A stretch of DNA of 13,325 nucleotides from a virus (IMGVR_UViG_2724679541_000003); one strand, 5' to 3'. Positions 1-11,700 are shown, numbered from the stretch's first letter. The notes: generated by a model not told the origin, from the letters alone. Translations and numbers: made by a program.

Positions 1-233
1 AGCATATTGTGTTCACACTCCCCTGCCAGTACTGGTCCCTGGTGTTCCACAACCGGTGGTTACTGGCAGAGATGAGCCGCATTGCAGCGGATGTGATACT
101 GGAAATCTGCCATCAGGCAGATGTGGAGCCGGGGATATTCACGGTGATCCACACATGGGGTTACTTAACGTCAAACGCCCGAATTGAAGCCAAATCATCC
201 AGACTGCTCAGCTCCTCTTTCATCTCCCGCTGA
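1..233 (+). CDS. Possible 3' end of a convergent gene entering from upstream of the window (hypothetical protein, 5'-partial)
   Basis: The frame of ORF 9..233 is open from nt 3 (cat att gtg ...), so the ORF may continue beyond the window start. I do not recognise the product. Its last ~24 codons overlap the 3' end of the minus-strand tfa-like gene and are low-complexity (SSRLLSSSFISR). Lambda has leftward b-region genes convergent with the tail operon, so this orientation is plausible, but the coding status is unproven. Confidence 0.2.
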   Translation, partial: HIVFTLPCQYWSLVFHNRWLLAEMSRIAADVILEICHQADVEPGIFTVIHTWGYLTSNARIEAKSSRLLSSSFISR

Positions 234-724
234 CGGCGATAAATCTCATCGTTGCGATCGACCTGCGCCTGCACCATTGCTGCCGCCAGTTCTTCCAGTT
301 CCGGCATCGACAGTTTCACCTGCTGATTATCCGCATCACTCCACACCATATGTGTTTGTGCCGCGACAGATTTTGCCAGCATGACCACCGGGGACAGGCG
401 GGCCACTGACGAGGCGTCAGCGTTCCACGTGCGGCCGTTCCATTCAAACGTGAACGGCTTCGCCTCCTGTTCTGTGCGCCATGCTTCAATTTCCTGACGT
501 CTGGCCTCTCTGGCCGCTTCCAGCATTTCTGGTGTCACAGTGAATGGGGCTATCTCACCCCATTTGCCACTTTGCAGTTCCTGCCAGATTTGCTGACCCG
601 TCGGTGCAACATCATCAGCGGTGGCTGTGTAGGGAACTGCCTGGTCCCTGTCGTCAAAAAAAACGTCACAGTCTACTGCGCCACTTTCGGTATAACGGGG
701 ATTAATGATTTTTTTAATTTCCAC
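161..724 (-). CDS. Tail fibre assembly-like protein, possibly DUF4376-like C-terminal region (about 187 aa from a GTG start)
   Basis: ORF 161..784 with TAA stop at 161-163. Preferred start is GTG at 722-724, preceded on the minus strand by GAGGAA with 6-nt spacing, giving N-terminus (M)EIKKIINPRY. The alternative ATG at 782-784 lacks a good Shine-Dalgarno and would overlap the upstream ORF. The C-terminal half (FEWNGRTWNADASS ... charged helical tail) resembles phage tail-fibre-assembly / DUF4376-type proteins from memory only. Position directly downstream of stf matches lambda tfa. Confidence 0.55.
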   Translation of the reverse strand: MEIKKIINPRYTESGAVDCDVFFDDRDQAVPYTATADDVAPTGQQIWQELQSGKWGEIAPFTVTPEMLEAAREARRQEIEAWRTEQEAKPFTFEWNGRTWNADASSVARLSPVVMLAKSVAAQTHMVWSDADNQQVKLSMPELEELAAAMVQAQVDRNDEIYRRQREMKEELSSLDDLASIRAFDVK

Positions 725-734
725 GGTGCATTCC

Positions 735-1088
735 TCACGATGTGCGAATAAAAAGCCCGGGCATTGCGCCAGAGACATGTGCATCCGGCACCCCGGACAG
801 GGCGCAATATGACCCCGGTAATGAATGCTCTGAACATCCCGTAATGAAAAATTGTGGGGATGCTATATACGTTCCGGTGGGAGTACCGGGCACTGAAATC
901 CCCACCGGTCCCAGTCGTGAGCCTCTGTATGACTGCCCCCTGACAAGTCTGATGACTTTATCACCGTCAGCTTCTCCCTGGTACGCAGCAATAATCAGCC
1001 CGCCAATGTCAGGGTCTCCCCATCTGTTGCGGACAGAGCTCGCCACGATTCTGTAAATAATATCTTCTGTGGTTATATTTATTTTCAC
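735..1088 (-). CDS. Hypothetical 117-aa protein between stf and the tfa-like gene
   Basis: ORF 735..1088. The GTG start at 1086-1088 overlaps the stf TGA stop (1085-1087) as GTGA, which suggests translational coupling. The first ~55 aa (MKINITTEDIIYRIVASSVRNRWGDPDIGGLIIAAYQGEADGDKVIRLVRGQ) look protein-like; the C-terminal half is Pro/Gly/Ser-rich and may be non-coding read-through. No family recognised. Confidence 0.3.
   Translation of the reverse strand: MKINITTEDIIYRIVASSVRNRWGDPDIGGLIIAAYQGEADGDKVIRLVRGQSYRGSRLGPVGISVPGTPTGTYIASPQFFITGCSEHSLPGSYCALSGVPDAHVSGAMPGLFIRTS
763..808. repeat. Perfect 8-bp inverted repeat ATTGCGCC ... GGCGCAAT separated by 30 nt
   Basis: Plus strand 763-770 attgcgcc and 801-808 ggcgcaat are exact reverse complements; the spacer contains two CCGG motifs. 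It lies 39-85 nt upstream of the preferred tfa-like GTG start and spans the alternative ATG at 782-784. Confidence 0.5.
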
Positions 1089-2146
1089 CCAGTCAGTCTG
1101 GATATGGGCCAGTAGCGGTAGCGGGTGTGATAAATGGGGCCGTTAATGCCGTAAAAAGTAAGGGATTTGGCTCTGTACCGCGGTTCTGTTGTCTCAGGGC
1201 GTGCATCAGTCCACCGGATGCTGAGCACCCCTTCAAACCGTGTGTCGGGTATGATGATGCCGTAGGGGCCAGCAACGGAATATTCACCTGGCAGCGCATT
1301 CCTTACCCAGGCCAGGAAATCACTCTTAGTGTCAAAACGGATAACATCTTCAGGCAGAAAAGCACACCCAAAGCCGAATGCGCCGGGTATCGCCAGACGG
1401 CCTTTTGTCCGGTCGTAAATGTCGCTCTGTGCTTCCATCGTGGCCGCACTTTTCAGCCCCAGATTATCCCGGGACTTCTGTTGTGCCTTTTCGCCTGCTG
1501 CTGCGATTTCTGACAGATGGTTAGCCATTTTCAGAGTGCCGGTCAGCGCAGCATCAATGTCATTTTTGGCCTGTTCTGCTGCGCGGGCATAACCTGCGGC
1601 ATCCTGTGCGCTCTGTCCGGCTGCGGCTGCATTTGCTCCTGTGCTTGTCACATCTTCCGCAGTGGCCTTTCTGTCCTCAGCTGTGACGGTTGCATCCTGT
1701 CGGGCTTTCTCCGCAAAACGTTGTGCATCATCACGGGCCGTTGCGGCTGCCGCCACATCCTGCGCCGTCTGCTGTGCGTTTCCGGCTGCAGCCCCGGCAC
1801 TCTGCTGCGCCTGCGCCACCATTTCCTCAAAGCGCTTCATCACCTCCGGACGTAAATCACCATCCTTTGGTGCATTCAGAAACGCGTTCAGTGTCCCCGG
1901 TGCATCAGTCGGTGCCACATCAATATCCCCGACACGGGTTGGCTGCCAGCCGTTACAGTGAAGCGCAACCTCGTAATACCCCGGCTCAGCCTCAATCACA
2001 TAAGCACCGTTATTGTCCGTCACGCAAGTGGCAACAACGTGTGCCACAACGGTCGGACTGGTTCTTCTGGCCCGCAGTTCAATCGCACAATTTACGACAG
2101 GTTTACCCGCCCCATCTTTCAGTACACCTGAAATCTTTACTGCCAT
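1085..2146 (-). CDS. stf: Side tail fibre protein, Stf-like, short form (353 aa)
   Basis: N-terminus MAVKISGVLKDGAGKPVVNCAIELRARRTSPTVV closely matches the lambda Stf N-terminus as recalled (MAVKISGVLKDGTGKPVQNCTIQLKA...). ATG at 2144-2146 is preceded by GGGGTG. The ORF's upstream 14 codons (to 2188) run through the intergenic terminator hairpin and are rejected. An Ala/Gln-rich low-complexity middle is followed by a C-terminal ~110-aa domain I do not recognise. Confidence 0.8.
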   Translation of the reverse strand: MAVKISGVLKDGAGKPVVNCAIELRARRTSPTVVAHVVATCVTDNNGAYVIEAEPGYYEVALHCNGWQPTRVGDIDVAPTDAPGTLNAFLNAPKDGDLRPEVMKRFEEMVAQAQQSAGAAAGNAQQTAQDVAAAATARDDAQRFAEKARQDATVTAEDRKATAEDVTSTGANAAAAGQSAQDAAGYARAAEQAKNDIDAALTGTLKMANHLSEIAAAGEKAQQKSRDNLGLKSAATMEAQSDIYDRTKGRLAIPGAFGFGCAFLPEDVIRFDTKSDFLAWVRNALPGEYSVAGPYGIIIPDTRFEGVLSIRWTDARPETTEPRYRAKSLTFYGINGPIYHTRYRYWPISRLTG

Positions 2147-2153
2147 ATTCACC

Positions 2154-2183
2154 CCACAAAAAGCCCGCCTGAACCAGCGGGCT
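2154..2183 (-). terminator. Intrinsic terminator-like hairpin between lom and stf
   Basis: Minus-strand RNA: AGCCCGC-UGGUUCAG-GCGGGCU (7-bp stem, plus coordinates 2162-2168 / 2177-2183) followed by UUUUGUGGGG. It sits 27 nt after the lom stop and just upstream of the stf RBS. Confidence 0.5.
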
Positions 2184-2209
2184 GTCATAACACTGTGTTA
2201 CCTGGCTAA

Positions 2210-2809
2210 TCAGAACTTATAACCGACACCCACGATGAAACCGTCAGTGCGCCAGTCGCCACTGCCGGAACCTTCATAAGCAAGGTCAATGGCCACGGAT
2301 TCGGTCGGGTTAAACTGCACGCCAGCCCCCCACGCCAGAGACGTGTTGCTGTGGCGGTTGTCATCACTCCCGGTCAGCACATCGTGCGTTTTCCCCTTGT
2401 TGTCAGTTACGCGGAGATAATCCCCGGAGAAGGTCGACACACGGCTGTAAGCCACGCCCGCCATCGCATACGCGCTGAACCATTCATTCACGCGCACAGA
2501 CAGCCCCGCCATCACGCTGAACCAGCGGTTACGCACGGAATCCTCATGCCAGCGGGTATCACTGTAATGCGTTTTTTGCTCATCTTCAGCGTTGGCATAG
2601 CTGAATGACGTCACCAGCCCCAGCGTGTCCGTAAACTCATAACGGTATTTCACGTTAATCCCGTTCAGATCATCACTGCCGGGAGCGTTCGTCGAGGCAT
2701 GAAGATACCCCGCGCTCAGCGTGGACTGATGTTCAGACGCCCATGCAGGCGCACCGGATACAGCCAGACAGATGGCTGCGGACAAAATGGCAGCATAAAG
2801 TTTACGCAT
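2210..2809 (-). CDS. lom: Lom / Ail / PagC-family outer-membrane beta-barrel protein (199 aa), lysogenic-conversion moron
   Basis: Signal peptide [24 protein letters not shown]. The C-terminus [20 protein letters not shown] and the internal GINVKYRYE and SVMAG motifs match lambda Lom as recalled. RBS GAGAGG is 5 nt upstream of the ATG at 2807-2809. Position immediately after J is as in lambda. Confidence 0.9.
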
Positions 2810-2830
2810 AATTACCTCTCGCTTTTCTGC

Positions 2831-2857
2831 AATAAAAAAGGCACCATTTCTGGTGCC
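2831..2857 (-). terminator. Rho-independent terminator between J and lom
   Basis: Minus-strand RNA: GGCACCA-GAAA-UGGUGCC (7-bp stem, plus coordinates 2840-2846 / 2851-2857) followed directly by UUUUUUAUU (plus 2831-2839). Strong canonical architecture. Confidence 0.65.
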
Positions 2858-2876
2858 CGTATCTGGGTTATAAAAT

Positions 2877-5800
2877 TCAGCTGATACTGATACCTGCTGT
2901 GGATTTCTTCATCACAACAACCAGCAAATCGCTGATACTTGCTGTGGGATACCAGCCATTTACCAGCCATGCCGATACAGAAAACTCCAGCGTCATGTGA
3001 CCGTGACCGGCAGGCATATCAATAACACCCGTATATATCAGCGTATTATCCAGGGTCGTTCGGTTATAAATTTCAGCACCGTTTTTCTTCACTATCAGGC
3101 GGCATGACGAATAAATATTGTTATTCTTCCGCTCATGTTTAGCACCGCGAAACGCCACCGCGGGAATAACAATTTGCCGATCAAACGGCTGATCGTCATA
3201 AACCCTGACGGTAATGGTCCCTGATGGCCACCTCTCCGGTGCCCGGGAGTCCCGTGGGAAAGGTTTGCCCACTGTTTTAACGAGATCGCCTTCAATCTGG
3301 TTCGCGGACAATTTTCCCAGAACCCGACAGTTCTTATTAATCGTGACGTTGTTGAGCGTCCCGGAGTTCGCGTTCACGTTACCGCTGATATCGGCATTTT
3401 TCGCCGTCAGCCGTCCGCCAGGTGTCAGGGAAAATGCCGGAGGATTACCGCCGCTGGTAATGGTCGGAGCCGTCAGGCGTTTCAGGAACACGTCGTTCAT
3501 GAATATCTGATCGCCCTGACCAACAAACATCGGCTTTGTGTTGCCATTCGCAGGATTAATCATCGCAATCCTGTCTGCCGCCAGCAGCACCTGACTCTGC
3601 ATTCCTGCTGGCGTATTCTCAATACCGGCACCGATACCCGCAATATAAAGGCGTCCGTCCTTCATCTGTTGCAGCTTCACAGCCCACATGCTGTTCAGGT
3701 TATTATTTGTATCAACCTGAACTTTCTGTATCTGCTGGATTGCAGCACTCTGATTTTCCAGTTTTTTATTGACGGTTTGCGTGATTTCATTGCTGACATT
3801 CGTAATGGACGTCCTGATTTCAGTCAGGTCCGGCGCAAGCTGACCGTTATCAATCTGCGTCCACAACTCCTTGCCGAGATGCGTTTTATTGATCAACCCT
3901 TTATAAAAACTCAGATAACCTTCCGCATCATCGCTCGCCCGACCGACGGCCTCCACAAATGCCGATTTGCCAACGGTGTTCACACTGCGAACGTAAAAAT
4001 AATAATCATGGCCCGGCCTGATATTGATACTGGCGGCTATCCAGTACAGCGCCGTGCCAAGATAGCGGGCGCTGGTTTCAACCTGCCTGATATCCGCAAT
4101 CCGCTTTTCCGAAAACCAGAACTCAAACTGCACCGTCGGGTCATATACAGCCAGTTTCGGGACCACCGTTATCTGAAAATACCCCGGTATCAGTTCAATA
4201 GTGACAGGCGCTGCCGGTGCCGCAATCCGGAACGATACCGACGCCGGATCGCCCTGCTGCCCCCGGGCATTTACCGCCCGGACTGTCAGACTGTAATTCC
4301 CCAGCGCCAGCTGCCTGAAGCGGTATGTGGTTTCCGTCGTCCTGGCTGTGCTGACCAGCCGCTCACTGCCGTCGTCCGCTGCCACGGTCAGGCGAAGCAG
4401 GAAGCTCACACCCTTCACCACCTTCGGCGTGTCCCATCGCGCCAGCACCTGATATTCCCCGCTGTCTGCGGTGACTTCGGCGGTCAGATGCTGCACCGCT
4501 GGCGGCGTGACACCATTCACCGTGCCGCGCCGGTCACCGTCAAAGTGTGCCCCGTTATCCACGATGGCCTCTTTTTCCGGCACATGCTGCACGGCGGTGA
4601 TGGCATACGTGCCGTCGTCGTTCTCACGGATACTCACGCAGCGGAACAGGCGCTGGCGCAGCGTCGGCAGCTTCAGCCCCCACACGCTGTATTCTGCAAC
4701 GCCGTCAGGAACCCGGCTCACTTTCACCTTCACGCCGTCGGTGACGGACTGAACCTCCACGCTGACCGGATTGCCATTTCCGTCAACCAGGCTTATCAGC
4801 GTGGTACCGGAGGACGGCAGCGTGATTTCACGGTCGAGCGTCAGCGTCCGGGTCTGGCTGTTCACCGCCAGTACGCGACCACCGGTGCTGATACCGGCAT
4901 AATCATCATCGCAGATTTCAATGACATCACCCGGTACATGGCGAAGCCCTTCTGCGCCGACGCTGAAGTCCACGGTCTGCGTTTCCAGCAGTTCCGTTTT
5001 AATCAGCCACAGCCCGGCGCGGTGCGCCTGTCCCCGGCTGGTACAGCCAAAGGCATCCATCTTCGTGACGTTACGACCGTAACGGACAATGGCCTGCGTG
5101 TCCTCCACAAGCTCTGTCGCCGTCTCATGACCGTTGTCCGGATCAATCCAGTTCACCTCAACGACATTATGGCGGTCCTTCAGGGCGCTGAAGCTGTAGC
5201 GGAACGGCGCGCCATCATCCGGCATCACCACATTACTGCGGTTATAGGTCCACACTTTATCCGACGGTCGGTCCTGCACGAACGTCAGCGTCTGCCCGTT
5301 CCATACCGGCATACAGCGCATCGCCGAGCAGAAATCACTGAGAACATCCCACGCCTTACGCTGTGTGGTCAGGTAAGCGTTACAGGTGATGCGCGGCTCC
5401 GTGCCGCCAAATCCGTCCGGCACTGACTGGTCGCAGTACTGGCCGATGACATACAGCGCCCATTTGTCCACATCTGCCGCACCAAGACGTTTCCCCATGC
5501 CGTAGCGCGGATGAGTGAGCATGTCCCACAGACACCAGGCCATGTTGTTGCTGTATGCTGGCTTAAGCGTTCCGTCCCAGATACCGCTGTATTGCCGCGT
5601 CTGCGGGTTATAGTTCGACGGCACCTGCAGAATGCGCCCGCGAAGATGATAATTGCGACTCACCTGCTGGTTACCGAACTGCTCTGAATCCACCTGCACG
5701 CCGACCAGCGCCGTGTTCGGGTAGCACTGTTTCACATCGATGATTTCGGTGTACGACGACCAGAGCGTTTTGTTCTGCAGCTGGTCTGTGGTGCTGTCCG

Positions 5801-6356
5801 GTGTCATCCTGCGCATCCGGATATTAAACGGGCGCGGCGGCAGGTTACCCACCACCACCGAGGCCAGATACTGCGAAGTGGTTTTGCCCTTAATGGTGAT
5901 GTCTTTTTCCGTCACCCAGCCACCGTTACGCTGTATCTGAACCAGCAGGCGGACTTCCGACGGATTCCGGTCCCCCTTTGAGGTGGTTTCCACCAGTGCC
6001 TGCACACCGAAGGTCAGGCGCAGACGATCAATGTTTGCCGACGTGATGGTCCGGGTGATCGGCGTGTCGTATTTCACTTCCGTACCCAGCACAGTCTCTG
6101 AGCCGGAAGATTCAAACCCCTCCGGCGGTGTCTGCTCCTGCTCGCCGGCGCGGAACACCACCGTAACACCGGAAAAGTTTGTCTTCCCCTCGCTATCCAG
6201 GACCGGCGTACCGTTCAGCAGCACGCTTTTTAATCCATCCACCGGACCGTCAACCGGCCCTTCGCTGATGGCATCAATCACACTCAGCAACTGCGTGGAT
6301 TTCAGGTTGTCCTTCGCTTCGCGCGGGGTATGCCCCTTACTGCTGCCTTTACCCAT
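2877..6356 (-). CDS. J: Central tail fibre / host specificity protein J (1159 aa)
   Basis: N-terminal ~850 aa is near-identical to lambda gpJ as recalled ([34 protein letters not shown] ...), including fibronectin-III-like segments. ATG at 6354-6356 with GGAG 8 nt upstream; TGA at 2877-2879. The C-terminal ~250-300 aa diverges from lambda. Confidence 0.95.
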
Positions 6357-6365
6357 TCCTCACGC

Positions 6366-6398
6366 TCCATAAACGACAAAACCGCCCGCAGGCGGTTT
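6366..6398 (-). other. GC-rich hairpin in the I-J intergenic region (weak terminator or attenuator-like)
   Basis: Minus-strand RNA: AAACCGCC-UGCG-GGCGGUUU (8-bp stem, plus coordinates 6379-6386 / 6391-6398) followed by UGUCGUUUAU, then the J RBS. The U-tract is interrupted, so termination is doubtful. Confidence 0.3.
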
Positions 6399-6416
6399 CA
6401 CATGAAACATTTTGCA

Positions 6417-7058
6417 TCAGCGACCAATCACCACAACCTGACCACCATCCCCTTCGTCTGCCGTGCTGATCTCCTGAGATACCACCCGCGACCCCACGCG
6501 CATTTCACCGTACAGAACAGGCAGAACATTGCCCTGGGCAACCATGTTATCCAGTGAGGAGAAACAGGTGTTCTGTTTGCCGTTATCCGTTGTCTGTGTA
6601 CGGGGAGTTCTGGCTTTCGGTGCCAGCATCTGTGCAACACCGCCAAGCGTCATACTGGCACCGAGAGAAAACAGCAGATTACTCGCCATAATTCCTACCC
6701 CCGGCATCCATATAGCAACCGCCATAACAGCTGCCCCCAGCACCGCCTGAAACACACCGCCACTTTTAGCTCCCACCAGACGCGGTACTATGTGGATCAC
6801 TGCACCATTTGCCAGCGGCTCATTAAGACGGGCAGACAATTCGGTTTCACCTGCATCACGCCCGGCAATGCGCACCTGATACCAGCCGTCACTCAGTTTC
6901 TGACGAAACGCCGGGAGCTGTGTGGCCAGTGCGCGGATGGCTTCAGCCCCCGTTTTCACACGAAGGTCGATGCGGCGGCCAAATCGTTGCAAATCCCCGT
7001 AAAGGCAGATGCGTGCCATTCCCGGTGACGCCAGAGGGAGTGTGTGCGTCGCTGCCAT
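6417..7058 (-). CDS. I: Tail assembly protein I (213 aa)
   Basis: MAATHTLPLASPGMARICLYGDLQRFGRRIDLRVKTGAEAIRALATQLPAFRQKLSDGWYQVRIAGRD and the C-terminus NGKQNT.FSSLDNMVAQGNVLPVLYGEMRVGSRVVSQEISTADEGDGGQVVVIGR match lambda gpI as recalled. The 5' end overlaps the K 3' end by 103 nt. Confidence 0.9.
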   Translation of the reverse strand: MAATHTLPLASPGMARICLYGDLQRFGRRIDLRVKTGAEAIRALATQLPAFRQKLSDGWYQVRIAGRDAGETELSARLNEPLANGAVIHIVPRLVGAKSGGVFQAVLGAAVMAVAIWMPGVGIMASNLLFSLGASMTLGGVAQMLAPKARTPRTQTTDNGKQNTCFSSLDNMVAQGNVLPVLYGEMRVGSRVVSQEISTADEGDGGQVVVIGR

Positions 7059-7699
7059 TTGTCGGTATACCTCTCTCGTTTACTCAGTTGTTCAGGAATA
7101 TGGTGCAGCAGCTCACCATCGCCGCAGTAAATGGCGGCATGATTCGGCACCGATGAACCAAAACAGCACAGCAGCACATCGCCCGGTTGTGCTGATGACA
7201 ACGGCACCTGATACAGCCCTGTGGCCTCCAGATTATCCAGATAGAGATTCTGACCGTGACGCCACCAGTCATCCCCGCGATGAAAATCCGGCATCTCAAT
7301 CCCCGCCAGATGATAAGCATCCCGGAACAGCGTGTAACAGTCCGTCACCCCGTGCTCAAAGCGCCGCCCGGTGAGATGCGGCACACAGCGGAACTTGTGA
7401 ATCGTCCCCCGGCAGACCAGCCACCACGGCAAATCACTCTGCACCTGCAGCCGCCGGTCAGCCTCACTCAGCCAGGGCAGACCACCGGGATGACTGTGGA
7501 CCAGTGCCACAATCTCACCCTGCATTTGTGCCCGCAGCCAGTCCTCCGGAGCCATCCGGAACCGTTCCTCCGGCTCACCGGAGATATTCTCGCTGGGAAG
7601 ATACCTGTCTCCCTCCGGCGTTCTCACCACGAAGCCACACGACTCCGCTGGCGCACATCGCCGGGCGTGCGCCAGAATCGCTGATTCTGTCTGTGTCAT
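6956..7699 (-). CDS. K: Tail assembly protein K (247 aa as called here): N-terminal JAB/MPN metalloprotease-like domain plus C-terminal NlpC/P60-like domain
   Basis: Near-identical to lambda gpK as recalled. JAMM motif H-S-H-x7-S-x2-D is present (EIVALVHSHPGGLPWLSEAD); the NlpC/P60-type Cys (GVTDCYTLF) and downstream His residues (NHAAIYCGDGELLHH) are present. Start chosen at ATG 7697-7699 (MTQTESAILAHARRC), 5 nt after the L stop; the ORF-track start at 7963 would overlap L and is rejected. Confidence 0.9.
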   Translation of the reverse strand: MTQTESAILAHARRCAPAESCGFVVRTPEGDRYLPSENISGEPEERFRMAPEDWLRAQMQGEIVALVHSHPGGLPWLSEADRRLQVQSDLPWWLVCRGTIHKFRCVPHLTGRRFEHGVTDCYTLFRDAYHLAGIEMPDFHRGDDWWRHGQNLYLDNLEATGLYQVPLSSAQPGDVLLCCFGSSVPNHAAIYCGDGELLHHIPEQLSKRERYTDKWQRRTHSLWRHREWHASAFTGICNDLAAASTFV

Positions 7700-7703
7700 G
7701 GAT

Positions 7704-8402
7704 TTACTGAGAAAGTTTATTGATGGAAAGGAAACCGCCGAAATTACCGGTATTGTTGCGCAACTCACACCCGCGCATACACTTGCTGCATTTGTCCTTC
7801 CGGATATCCGTTGTTGGTTTGTCGAACTCGTCAGCCACTGCCCTGCCCGTGTAACCACACTCATCAGAACGGTAAGTCCACATACAGGTATTCGCCAGCA
7901 TGATACGCCCCGGGAAAACCGCGCCATCCGTCTCCGTTGGTGTGGCCAGCACAAAAGAGGCACTGACCGCGCTCAGTTCGCTGCACTGCTCGATGCGCCA
8001 GCGGCTGATCACCTCCTGTTCCGGATCGGCGTCGCTGTTTCCGTTGACGAAGTTCACCGCATCCAGAAAACGGGCGTAAACCTTACGCCGGACCACCGTT
8101 CCGCCGACCAGACTCTGCAGATCTTCCGCCATCCCGGTGACCATGCCGTGCAGGTTAGAGACCGTCAGTGTCGGACGGGCAGCACAGCCCCTGCCGTTCA
8201 GTTCAAACCCCGACCCCTGAATGGGGTATGCCTGATACTGCCGCCCCTGCCAGGTGACCGGCTCACCTTTTTCGTTCTGCTCATTACAGAAAAAATAACG
8301 CTCACCACCGACCTCTGTCAGATCGATTTCCCAGAGCTCCACCCGGGCTGACTGCTCCGCACGGGTGCATTCATTCAGTGTTTCCTGCCGGATATCCTGC
8401 AT
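7704..8402 (-). CDS. L: Tail tip protein L (232 aa)
   Basis: Near-identical to lambda gpL as recalled (MQDIRQETLNECTRAEQSA ... NFGGFLSINKLSQ). The C-terminal Cys cluster (CSKCMRGC plus upstream Cys) is conserved. The ATG overlaps the M stop by 1 nt. Confidence 0.95.
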   Translation of the reverse strand: MQDIRQETLNECTRAEQSARVELWEIDLTEVGGERYFFCNEQNEKGEPVTWQGRQYQAYPIQGSGFELNGRGCAARPTLTVSNLHGMVTGMAEDLQSLVGGTVVRRKVYARFLDAVNFVNGNSDADPEQEVISRWRIEQCSELSAVSASFVLATPTETDGAVFPGRIMLANTCMWTYRSDECGYTGRAVADEFDKPTTDIRKDKCSKCMRGCELRNNTGNFGGFLSINKLSQ

Positions 8403-8731
8403 CAGTTCACCACCTGTTCAAAATCGGCCGTTACAGTCACCCATAACGCCCCCACGCTTGCCGACCATTTACGACAAACCACCCTGATCAGTTTCCAGTC
8501 ATAAGGTGGCGTCCACTGAAATGCGCGGACGCCACCGTGCCGTTCCAGAAAGGCTTTTAAAGATGGGTGTTCACCTTTACGAACACGTATCGTCACGCTG
8601 TAAGTCGACAACTGGTTATTCAGTCCCGCCGCACGACGCTGTTCATAACCATCGCCCAGCTTCACTGTCACCACTTTCGGCTCTGATACCACATTCATAT
8701 CCGGGCGCACTTTCCAGTGAAACGTCTCCAT
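8402..8731 (-). CDS. M: Tail tip protein M (109 aa)
   Basis: Matches lambda gpM as recalled (M.TF.WKV.P ... GDGY.QR..AGLN ... WTPPY.W ... FEQVVN). The ATG at 8729-8731 overlaps the H stop (TAATG). Confidence 0.95.
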   Translation of the reverse strand: METFHWKVRPDMNVVSEPKVVTVKLGDGYEQRRAAGLNNQLSTYSVTIRVRKGEHPSLKAFLERHGGVRAFQWTPPYDWKLIRVVCRKWSASVGALWVTVTADFEQVVN

Positions 8732-11700
8732 TACCGGTATGCTCCACTTAACCGGCCACCATCACGGGCCTGCTGTTGCATAAAGTCCGCGGCCGCTTTT
8801 TTCCCGAGGTCATAAACCACCTTCAGGGCAGCCGGACCTATCTGCCCGTTCGTGCCGTCGTTATTGATCTCAATGTTGTACTGCGGGGCAAACATCACCA
8901 TGCCTGAACCACCAGTATCCGCCACAACCCCCAGCTTACCATCAGCACCGCGACGCAGTGGCAGAATGGCTTCAGGTCCCGCTTCCCCCATCACACCCGC
9001 GCCTTTTGCAAAAGCAAAAAACGTCGGACGGTTAACCACCGTGCCACTGTAGCGACTCAAATCAGCAGACTGGTAAACACCGCCATCAGCATTAGTCGTG
9101 AAGCCGAATAAAGAACCGACGCCCTTTACCGCCTGCATCATGGCCATCTGTGCCATAATTCTGGCCATATCTGACAACAGGGAAGAGGTGAAGGATTTAA
9201 AATTCAGCTTACCGGTGGTACAGAATGTCGCCAGTGCATTACCGGCACTGCTGAATGCCACTGTAAACATCTGTTCTGCCGTTCCCGCCGCATTATCCGC
9301 ATCCGCCGTAAAATTCTGAAACGCCCGCATGGCACCGTTTTTCCAGTCGCCCTGCGCCACTTCCAGTTCCTGCCAGTAGCGTTTGTTTTCATTCAGTTGT
9401 CGCTTCAGGCTCCCCTTCAGCACCTCCTCAGCCCTCCGGTAGTCCTCCGTCCCGTAAGTGCCTTTCTGGCGACTGTCATTCTCAAGCTGTTGCAACTGTT
9501 GCCGGTATTCCTGCCGGATGCGCAACTGTGCCTGGTAGCGCTGCCGCTGCTTATCCCCCATACCTGCAGTGGCAATATCCAGATTGTGCTGCTCACGCAG
9601 TGCACGTTCTTTGTCTGCCAGCTGGCTGGTCAGCTGAACCGTTTTTTTTCTCAGGTCGTTAAGCGCTGTCTGTTTCTGCAGCTCCTGCTGTTTCACATCC
9701 AGCAGCGTCAGCGCCTGAATCAGCTCATTCTTACGGGCCAGCACACTCTTTTCATCTGCCGTCAGCTTTTTCCCGTCCAGGTCGCTGATGCGCTGCTGCA
9801 GGGCCAGAAGCTGTTTATGCGCTTCAGTCATCCTTTCAGTGGCAATGCCTGCTGACTGTCTGGCAGCAGCAATCTGCCCTTCCACCTGTGCCTGCTGCTG
9901 ACTGTACTGCAGCAATAACCGGGTGGCCTCATCATTACGGGTTGCCCGTGTATTTTTCTTAATGGCTTTTTCGTAACGTTCATTTTCACGCTGTATCGCC
10001 GCATCCCTGACAGCCTGGTCGGCGTACTGCATGGCATTAATACGCGCAATTTCCCGCTGATGTCGTGCAGCTTCCGTTTCATTCATCCGGTTCAGCGCGG
10101 CATTTTCAGCATTCCGGCGTTTCTGTTGCTCCTGGTAATTCCGTTCTGCCTGCGCTTTTGCATCCTGCAAATCCTTCCGGCGTTTTTTCTCCTGAAGATC
10201 GTTAAGACGCTGCTGATCGTACTCCACCTGTGTGGAGGCGTTTGTCCACGGATATTTTTTCGCGCGCTGAATTTTTTCCTGTAACGCATCAATCTGCGCA
10301 TCCAGCGAGTCTTCACGACCAATATTCATGGCCGCATCCCAGAACTGCTTCCACCAGTCAGACAAGGTTTGCAGCGTACTACCCAGCGCATTGAGATTAT
10401 TATCAATATCAGATGTGCGTTTACCGGTTTCCTCTGCCAGCGCAGACATGGCGATCCGGGCCGCATCACTGGACCGCCCCTGCTCCCCAAGGACGCGTAT
10501 CTGCTCAAGCTGAGTGGCATTCAAAAAATGCAGCGCATTGTCCAGCGCCTTCGCGGCATTTACAGGATCATCCTTCAGCCGCTTAAACTGATTTATGGTA
10601 TCGCTGACCGACTGGCCAACCGATCGCTCCATCTGTGCGGCAGCTTTCGCCACCATACCAATATCGTTTCCATGAAATGCCCCACTGCCCACCACCTGTG
10701 CCAGCGCACCGGCTGCCGCATGTTGCGTGATACCATTCCCGGATATGGCCCGGCTGAGTTTCCACAACTGCCCGACAGTGACACCGGCATAATGTCCCGT
10801 CAGCGCCAGCTGACGGTTAAATTTCTCGCCCTCCTTCCGGCCGTCATGCCAGGCTTTACCCAGACCCAGGACCGCCGCGACAAGTCCGCCAATAACGCCG
10901 CCAGTCATCATGCCTTTCGGCGACATCAGTGCGCCTGTCCATCCGGCACGGTTAGCCAGCGTTATCCCGGATCCCCTCAGCGCACCAAAATTGCCTCGCG
11001 CCATCTGACTGATTAACACCCCCAGCTCCCGCCGGGCTGCCGCACTTTTCAGCCCCAGCGAATGTGTGGCTTTTCCTGCCCGCTCCATTTTGCGGATATA
11101 CACTTCTGCAGCACTGCTTACCCCCAGCTGAGCCGCCCTGGCGCGAAGCAACTCAGAAGACGACAGATTCTGGCGGGTTGCCTGCTCTTTAAGCTGGCGG
11201 ATAAACGCCGCTTTCTGCCGGGTGGCCTGTTCCTCTGCCTGCGTCAGGGCACGGGTTTTCGCCGTGATCTCCGAAATCAGCGCCAGATAATCCTGCTGAC
11301 CAACCCCGCCACTGTTTCTGGCCTGTCGGATCTGCTGCTGAATACGCTGTAATTCCTGAAGCCCCGCACCGGCCTGTTTCACACTGTCAATCTGGCGATA
11401 AAAGGCGGCAGCCGCTTTATCCTGCGCCTCCGCCAGTGCCCTGGCCTGCGCCTGTTCCTCGCGCATTTTCTGATTCAGGGCATCCACGCGCAGACGGGTT
11501 TGTTCCACCTCACGGGCCATGCGTTCATGAGCCCGTGCATTCTTCTCCACCGTCTGCGCATGGGCTGATGCTGCTGTTGCAGCCGAAGAAGCCGCCTGCA
11601 TTGTCTGCCGGGCCGCCTGAGTCTGACGCTCCATAAAACGCTGCATACGGGCAGAAGACCGTTCTGCATCGCTGGCTGCACCATTCAGAAGGTTTTTGAT

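Follow-up and report, generated by a model that had tools for sequence, protein, structure and literature searches.

Gene content and features of the locus

The window, the whole 13,325-nt stretch of viral DNA that was analysed (IMGVR_UViG_2724679541_000003), has the minus-strand gene order H-M-L-K-I-J-lom-stf, as in lambda, which places stf at the end of a lambdoid tail operon, with a DUF4376 gene immediately downstream (Table 1). The other tail genes called in the corresponding S. flexneri loci (H, M, L, K, I, J, and lom) are all full length. In addition to the terminator-like hairpin between lom and stf, a second terminator-like hairpin with a T-run occurs after J (2839–2858, minus strand); if the hairpins work, lom and stf would be transcriptionally separate unless late transcription is antiterminated. 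At the other end, positions 1–160 hold part of a transposase gene of the IS91 family (99.4% identity to copies carried by many E. coli plasmids), which abuts the DUF4376 stop codon at 160/161. Beyond 160/161, the two S. flexneri reference loci (Table 1) and the E. coli relatives described below continue into other DNA, usually an ipaH effector gene, which makes the window a third form of the locus, with its cargo region either replaced or interrupted.

Table 1. Features of the window and positions of two S. flexneri reference loci
Feature	Position	Strand	Basis or remarks
DUF4376 gene, presumed tail-fibre chaperone	161..784	-	PF14301, E=8.7e-17; phrog_1141, E=7e-89
Out-of-frame stf remainder, 117 codons, encoding distal tip domain D2	735..1088	-	phrog_2636, D2 HMM, CDS of relatives
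stf ORF, frameshift-shortened	1085..2146	-	353 codons + TGA; exact protein is S. flexneri AAN43437.2 / AAP16232.1
Domain D1, residues 245-353, alpha/beta knob, end incomplete	1088..1414	-	D1 HMM, W109, model pLDDT ~90
Site of 4-bp loss, reads GACTGACT	1091..1098	-	alignment with intact relatives
Conserved joint motif, residues 204-244 (..LSEIAAAGEKAQQKSRDNLGLKSAATM..)	1415..1537	-	family alignment; profile positions 1-45
Ala/Gln-rich shaft, residues 132-203	1538..1753	-	composition; alignment to Ala-rich part of 7kjk collar spike protein
N-terminal lambda-Stf-type anchor domain, residues 1-131	1754..2146	-	PF08400, lambda Stf identity, 9e7m
Terminator-like hairpin between lom and stf	2162..2183	-	8 pairs + T-run; 16 nt before stf ATG
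lom	2210-2809	-	intact; Ail_Lom, E=6.6e-125
J, host-specificity gene	2877-6356	-	intact; gene calls and Pfam in identical S. flexneri loci
2457T locus (L009)	AE014073.1 733907-750968		beside ybhB and bio genes
301 locus (L011)	AE005674.2 1912777-1929838		beside ipaH, DinI, aspS

The product of the shortened stf ORF (2146..1085, minus strand) begins with MAVKISGVLKDG. An alternative 367-aa ORF from ATG 2188 starts within the upstream terminator-like hairpin, and the translation start of stf is therefore the ATG at 2146 and not that at 2188. The initial annotation, made from the sequence alone, had placed a 353-aa ORF here without stating its strand, and the ORF is present on the minus strand together with most of the features then described. 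The first ~130 aa, regarded as lambda-Stf-like, match Pfam PF08400 ‘Prophage tail fibre N-terminal’ over residues 1–131 (E=1.1e-48; cut-off, 26.6 bits), the tail-attachment domain of a lambda-type side tail fibre, and share 50% identity with lambda Stf over residues 1–121 (BLASTP). A PDB chain deposited as ‘Tail fiber protein’ (9e7m) matches the anchor at E=3e-22 and matches lambda Stf over the residues aligned. The Ala/Gln-rich linker was likewise recovered, with 42 Ala and 14 Gln amongst the 131 residues from 110 to 240, and this shaft is presumed to form a trimeric coiled coil. The ~110-aa Trp/Tyr/Arg-rich end is present as it had been quoted and, by BLASTP, is unlike the lambda Stf shaft or tip, so that the description of a lambda-type anchor fused to a non-lambda distal part holds, in a family that is short even when intact (470 aa).

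Shaft length differs amongst close relatives through in-frame deletions, with the protein P0001 (421 aa) 49 aa shorter and the L013 protein (see below) 40 aa shorter, and the repetitive coiled-coil shaft therefore appears prone to recombinational length change. The joint motif that follows the shaft (LSEIAA..SRDNLGLKSAATM..DRT.GRLAIPGAFGFG) stands before the distal module in all members of the family.

Intact relatives and the 4-bp deletion

Ten close E. coli relatives from complete genomes, mostly of human origin, match the region at 93–99% DNA identity, and ipaH adjoins the locus in those inspected. All four of the annotated relatives inspected have a single RefSeq CDS of 1413 nt (470 aa), equivalent to window positions 2146..735, followed by the DUF4376 gene; in L001–L004 the 353-aa part and the D2 remainder are contiguous in one CDS. 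At 1091..1098 the sequence in intact relatives is GACTGACTGACTGGG, encoding Asp-Trp, or GACTGACTGGCTGGG, encoding Gly-Trp; in wider context the relatives have ...CCAGACTGACTGACTGGGTG (Asp-Trp) or ...CCAGACTGACTGGCTGGGTG (Gly-Trp) and the window ...CCAGACTGACTGGGTG. The window sequence is derivable from either ancestor by the loss of one tandem-repeat unit, (GACT)3 to (GACT)2 or (CTGG)2 to (CTGG)1. Relative to the intact relatives aligned there, the stf stop codon (TGA, 1087–1085) is the product of this 4-bp frameshift, which falls exactly at the junction of domains D1 and D2. The frame ends after 353 of 470 codons and does not continue uninterrupted through the tip as in a lambda-type Stf, which makes the window stf, in all probability, a pseudogene copy of a member of this family.

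Profile matches follow the same division. The intact 470-aa protein matches phrog_2636 ‘tail fiber protein’ at E=1.2e-216, while in the window, in place of a full-length match ending at the C-terminus, the match is divided between two frames. The two ORFs correspond to consecutive parts of phrog_2636, with the C-terminal segment of the 353-aa ORF at positions 327–442 and the 117-aa ORF at positions 456–567 (E=7.5e-45), the latter also recognised by the D2 HMM (E=1e-43). In homologues down to ~27% identity, amongst them the 416-aa fibres that begin with PF12571, the frame runs through the junction. A Trp at the junction (W109) is invariant across an alignment of 45 sequences, the members of which are 26–86% identical to the first, and is missing from the 353-aa product of the window. 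Consistent with the position of the lesion, the D1 HMM matches residues 245–349 (profile positions 1–105 of 113), so that D1 in the window stops 8 profile positions early, with the invariant Trp gone.

Architecture of the distal module

A profile of the distal part of the fibre (its C-terminal ~270 residues), run against 1.84 billion representative proteins, matched only 169 representatives, 72 of them at E<=1e-30. Wherever complete in these 169 representatives, D2 (~110 aa) is at the extreme C-terminus, and D1 (~110 aa) is internal, in one, two, or three copies per protein. Rac-SA53 tail3 (1061 aa), for example, consists distally of three D1 and one D2, and phiP27 L56 (490 aa) of one of each. 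A few family proteins have D1 without D2, with other C-terminal domains coming after D1, and D1 ends the protein only in representatives that have this frameshift allele or that match D1 in part, the latter likely being incomplete sequences. No homology between D1 and D2 was detected by HHalign (probability 0.8%), and an internal duplication was rejected as the source of the pair on this value.

The distal half has no match in Pfam or NCBIfam, and a sequence search of the PDB with the protein returned no match beyond the N-terminal ~190 residues. An AF2 prediction with a 10-sequence alignment (pLDDT 62) was replaced by a monomer model built with the 45-sequence alignment (pLDDT 89.9). The best structural neighbours of the modelled D1–D2 are the phi812 receptor-binding protein (9euf), phage K gp144 (5m9f), the R2 pyocin fibre (6cu2/6cl6), and Mu fibre S (8ju3). 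Only fibre and receptor-binding domains, and no enzyme-like fold, occur amongst these neighbours, and the catalytic folds sought as signs of an enzymatic tailspike or depolymerase tip (beta-helix depolymerase, esterase, and lyase) were not found. The D1–D2 tip has neither a Pfam or NCBIfam model nor a solved structure and is the part still undescribed.

Distribution of the broken allele

The identical 353/367-aa protein is found on ~140 contigs, including those of S. flexneri 2a strains 301 (AAN42355 and AAN43437) and 2457T (AAP16232), and the 117-aa remnant on 311 contigs. Window positions 161–10146 are 99.99% identical to two distinct chromosomal loci in S. flexneri (Table 1), which identifies the window as an S. 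flexneri lambdoid prophage, with the broken allele in both prophage copies. Other copies of this prophage carry an ipaH effector gene beside the fibre module. S. flexneri 2a has two copies of the ~10-kb tail module at different chromosomal sites, both with the stf frameshift, which implies a recent duplication or a gene conversion after the mutation.

L013 (CP026839.1 2320183–2329163), part of another, Shigella-sized genome (4.27 Mb), shares the 4-bp loss on a different haplotype. In comparison with window positions 1091–1283, the SNPs of L013 at 1117 and 1257–1283 match the intact E. coli alleles. L013 has also decayed further, having lost 120 bp of the Ala-rich shaft in frame and 1 bp of DUF4376 (a frameshift). 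Additionally, IS elements replace J at this locus. The presence of the 4-bp loss on two haplotype backgrounds is explained equally well by recurrent slippage or by recombination.

By megablast, the phage collection yielded matches only to lom, J, and the first ~90 nt of stf, and phage relatives surfaced at the protein level only. The literature on tail fibres of S. flexneri ipaH prophages yielded nothing specific to the window stf gene. In kind, the gene is already known, as PHROG 2636 is catalogued, its phages are sequenced, and the S. flexneri ORFs already have named database entries. In source records the 353/367-aa ORF goes by names such as ‘putative tail component’ and ‘prophage tail fiber N-terminal domain-containing protein’, and the 117-aa ORF by ‘phage tail protein’; these ORFs should be merged in annotation into one frameshifted pseudogene.

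A probably inactivated side-tail-fibre gene

The reading to which the deletion, the split match, and the relatives point, with a probability of about 0.88, is that the window stf is the side-tail-fibre gene of an S. flexneri lambdoid prophage, inactivated when a short tandem repeat lost 4 bp. The intact 470-aa fibre comprises, in order, the lambda-type anchor, the Ala-rich shaft, the joint motif, and then the D1 knob and the D2 C-terminal tip. Extrapolating from lambda Stf and from chaperone-assisted fibres, it would dock at the tail tip through its N-terminal domain, with D2 presumably binding a surface receptor and the DUF4376 protein probably aiding folding and trimerisation. The deletion removes the invariant Trp, halts translation after 353 aa, and strands D2 as an out-of-frame remnant of 117 codons. 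Trimer folding is usually driven by the distal domains and their chaperones and, with D2 missing, the 353-aa product is therefore most likely non-functional; no functional side fibre would be produced, presumably at no cost to the bacterium.

Amongst the possibilities raised in the initial annotation, that of a deletion remnant came nearest to the truth, the deletion being one of 4 bp. It had allowed that related genomes might expose the gene as a pseudogene fragment, which the intact E. coli relatives do. The idea of a short 353-aa Stf survives as far as the ORF is concerned; the protein itself would naturally run on, but for the 4-bp deletion, through the next 117 codons (1088..735). Similarly, what had been described as a compact terminal tip is D1, the penultimate domain of a D1–D2 distal module broken by the frameshift at the domain boundary, and the suggestion of an enzymatic tip was not borne out, with structural neighbours confined to fibre and receptor-binding domains. 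A simple truncation, in which the C-terminal region would align within ordinary Stf shafts, had also been entertained; no such alignment to the lambda Stf shaft exists, but D1 is indeed an internal repeat in longer fibres of its own family (three copies in Rac-SA53).

Three points stand against the pseudogene reading: the little decay of the remnant, a stop-start overlap that may permit some reinitiation, and the existence of members with D1 but without D2. Upstream of the DUF4376 overlap, the D2 remnant has one substitution (position 887) relative to intact L001; the broken allele has thus hardly decayed further, and either the deletion is recent or some constraint remains. Further, the GTG of the remnant (1088–1086) overlaps the new TGA stop codon (1087–1085), giving GTGA. 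These two features, together with the same 4-bp loss on the S. flexneri and CP026839.1 backgrounds, which is compatible with recurrent slippage, would fit a gene that is split but functional, with D2 supplied separately through GTGA reinitiation or a -1 ribosomal shift, or an on/off switch operated by GACT/CTGG slippage. When the sequence was read for the corresponding signals, however, neither a Shine-Dalgarno-like sequence before GTG 1088 nor a canonical -1 slippery heptamer was seen, and the invariant junction Trp is in neither product. The repeat has just 2–3 units, whereas known contingency loci hold far more, CP026839.1 has decayed further, in both stf and DUF4376, and recombination accounts for the two backgrounds equally well. 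A split or switching gene is accordingly considered very unlikely. Slightly harder still to credit are its more specific forms, in which D2 made by GTGA reinitiation would complete the fibre non-covalently with the DUF4376 protein, or a (GACT)n/(CTGG)n hotspot would toggle Shigella side fibres.

The third point bears on whether the 353-aa Stf could be a complete and functional short fibre, with D1 as a compact receptor-binding or enzymatic tip. The identical ORF recurs in many S. flexneri genomes, D1 is predicted to fold well as an autonomous domain, and some fibres do contain D1 without D2. Yet every intact relative runs in frame into D2, the ORF stops 8 profile positions before D1 is complete and without the invariant Trp, and D2 sequence lies directly behind it in another frame. 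The absence of an enzyme-like fold from the structural search and the nature of the D1-terminal representatives, limited to the same allele and to partial matches, weigh in the same direction, and a native short fibre is highly improbable. Lastly, an error of the record is a negligible prospect: indels in short repeats are a common type of sequencing or assembly error, but two reference genomes that were finished independently, 301 and 2457T, encode the same truncated protein, at two loci that each share 99.99% identity with the window, and the protein recurs in well over 100 further assemblies, so that an artefactual 4-bp gap can be discounted. As an inactivated fibre gene, the window stf is ordinary biology, one more decayed Shigella prophage gene, closely paralleled by the stf frameshift of laboratory lambda.

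The DUF4376 partner gene

The DUF4376 gene is annotated from ATG 784 and so overlaps the end of stf by 50 nt, while the phrog_1141 alignment of its protein begins at residue 19. The sequence around this point reads ...TCG TGA GGAATGCACC GTG GAA ATT..., with GAGGA-N7-GTG in which the GAGGA overlaps the stf stop codon. Given the start of the alignment and the GAGGA before GTG 727, the annotated start is likely wrong; the real start is probably GTG 727, just past the stf stop, with the annotated one 19 codons too far upstream. From GTG 727 the protein has 188 aa, as in SE11 and phiP27, and the placement of this start directly behind the stf stop would be compatible with translational coupling.

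In all loci examined, the fibre gene has a DUF4376 gene behind it, in lambdoid and Mu/P2-type prophages alike, and also in the phages phiP27, Rac-SA53, SerU-LTIIb, and Av-05; the window, with its cognate DUF4376 gene directly downstream, conforms to this arrangement for PHROG 2636 fibres. DUF4376 proteins have experimental support as chaperones of tail fibres: they are so described in the Alteromonas phages V22 and A5 (PMC7289586, PMC10579305), and a functional Campylobacter CJIE1 H-fibre requires a DUF4376 protein (PMC7882524). In V22 (gp26/gp27) and CJIE1, a fibre gene is followed by the gene for a DUF4376 protein needed for function; the likeness to the window lies in this gene pairing, and the requirement for a chaperone here is putative. 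By analogy, the window DUF4376 protein may act as the chaperone of Stf.

Comparison with known tail fibres

The window stf resembles lambda stf, its closest analogue, in its PF08400 anchor, its position after J and lom, its Ala-rich shaft, and the dedicated assembly gene that follows it. The resemblance extends to the state of the gene in the lambda reference, where stf is annotated as two ‘tail fiber protein’ CDS, orf-401 and orf-314, a split in lambda (PaPa) that Hendrix and Duda reportedly recognised in 1992 as a frameshift relative to Ur-lambda. The lesion differs, in the window being a 4-bp deletion by repeat slippage where two domains meet, unlike that of lambda. Lambda Stf is ~774 aa in length, while the intact relatives of the window stf have 470 aa, and BLASTP against orf-401 and orf-314 found no similarity past residue ~121 and none to the lambda shaft or tip. 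On the same comparison with both halves of lambda Stf, D1 was rejected as an internal piece of a lambda-type shaft. The gene downstream also differs, lambda orf-194 being annotated ‘tail fiber assembly’ and the window having DUF4376, so that the window stf has neither a lambda-like distal shaft and tip nor a lambda-type assembly gene.

The window stf also belongs with the PHROG 2636 fibres of sequenced phages. Both phiP27 L56 (with L57) and Rac-SA53 tail3 (with tail4) have D1, D2, and a DUF4376 partner in common with the window; both genes are intact, Rac-SA53 having three D1, whereas the window copy is broken after D1. P2/Mu-type myophage fibres of 416 aa in E. coli prophages share the joint motif, D1, and D2 at 42–46% identity over 100% of the length and are followed, as in the window, by a DUF4376 gene. 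They differ in having a PF12571 (tail-collar) N-terminus, a contractile baseplate tail, and intact genes. The occurrence of the joint, D1, and D2 on both PF08400 and PF12571 fibres suggests that the module is a portable tip swapped between tail types; mosaicism of fibre genes is familiar. The D1–D2 tip (~245 aa) and the DUF4376 protein (~190 aa) may together represent a compact receptor-binding cassette common to lambdoid and P2/Mu-type fibres, a pairing that offers a small lead for annotation and for the engineering of phage and pyocin host range but is no discovery.

In L005 (STEC313) and L006 (SE11), prophages with a baseplate and thus of the contractile-tail type, a PF08400 fibre paired with a DUF4376 gene occurs as the second fibre gene, which lies downstream of a different fibre gene and the assembly gene of the latter. 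Their occurrence in such prophages suggests that the PF08400 ‘lambda-type’ anchor is not confined to the tails of lambdoid siphophages.
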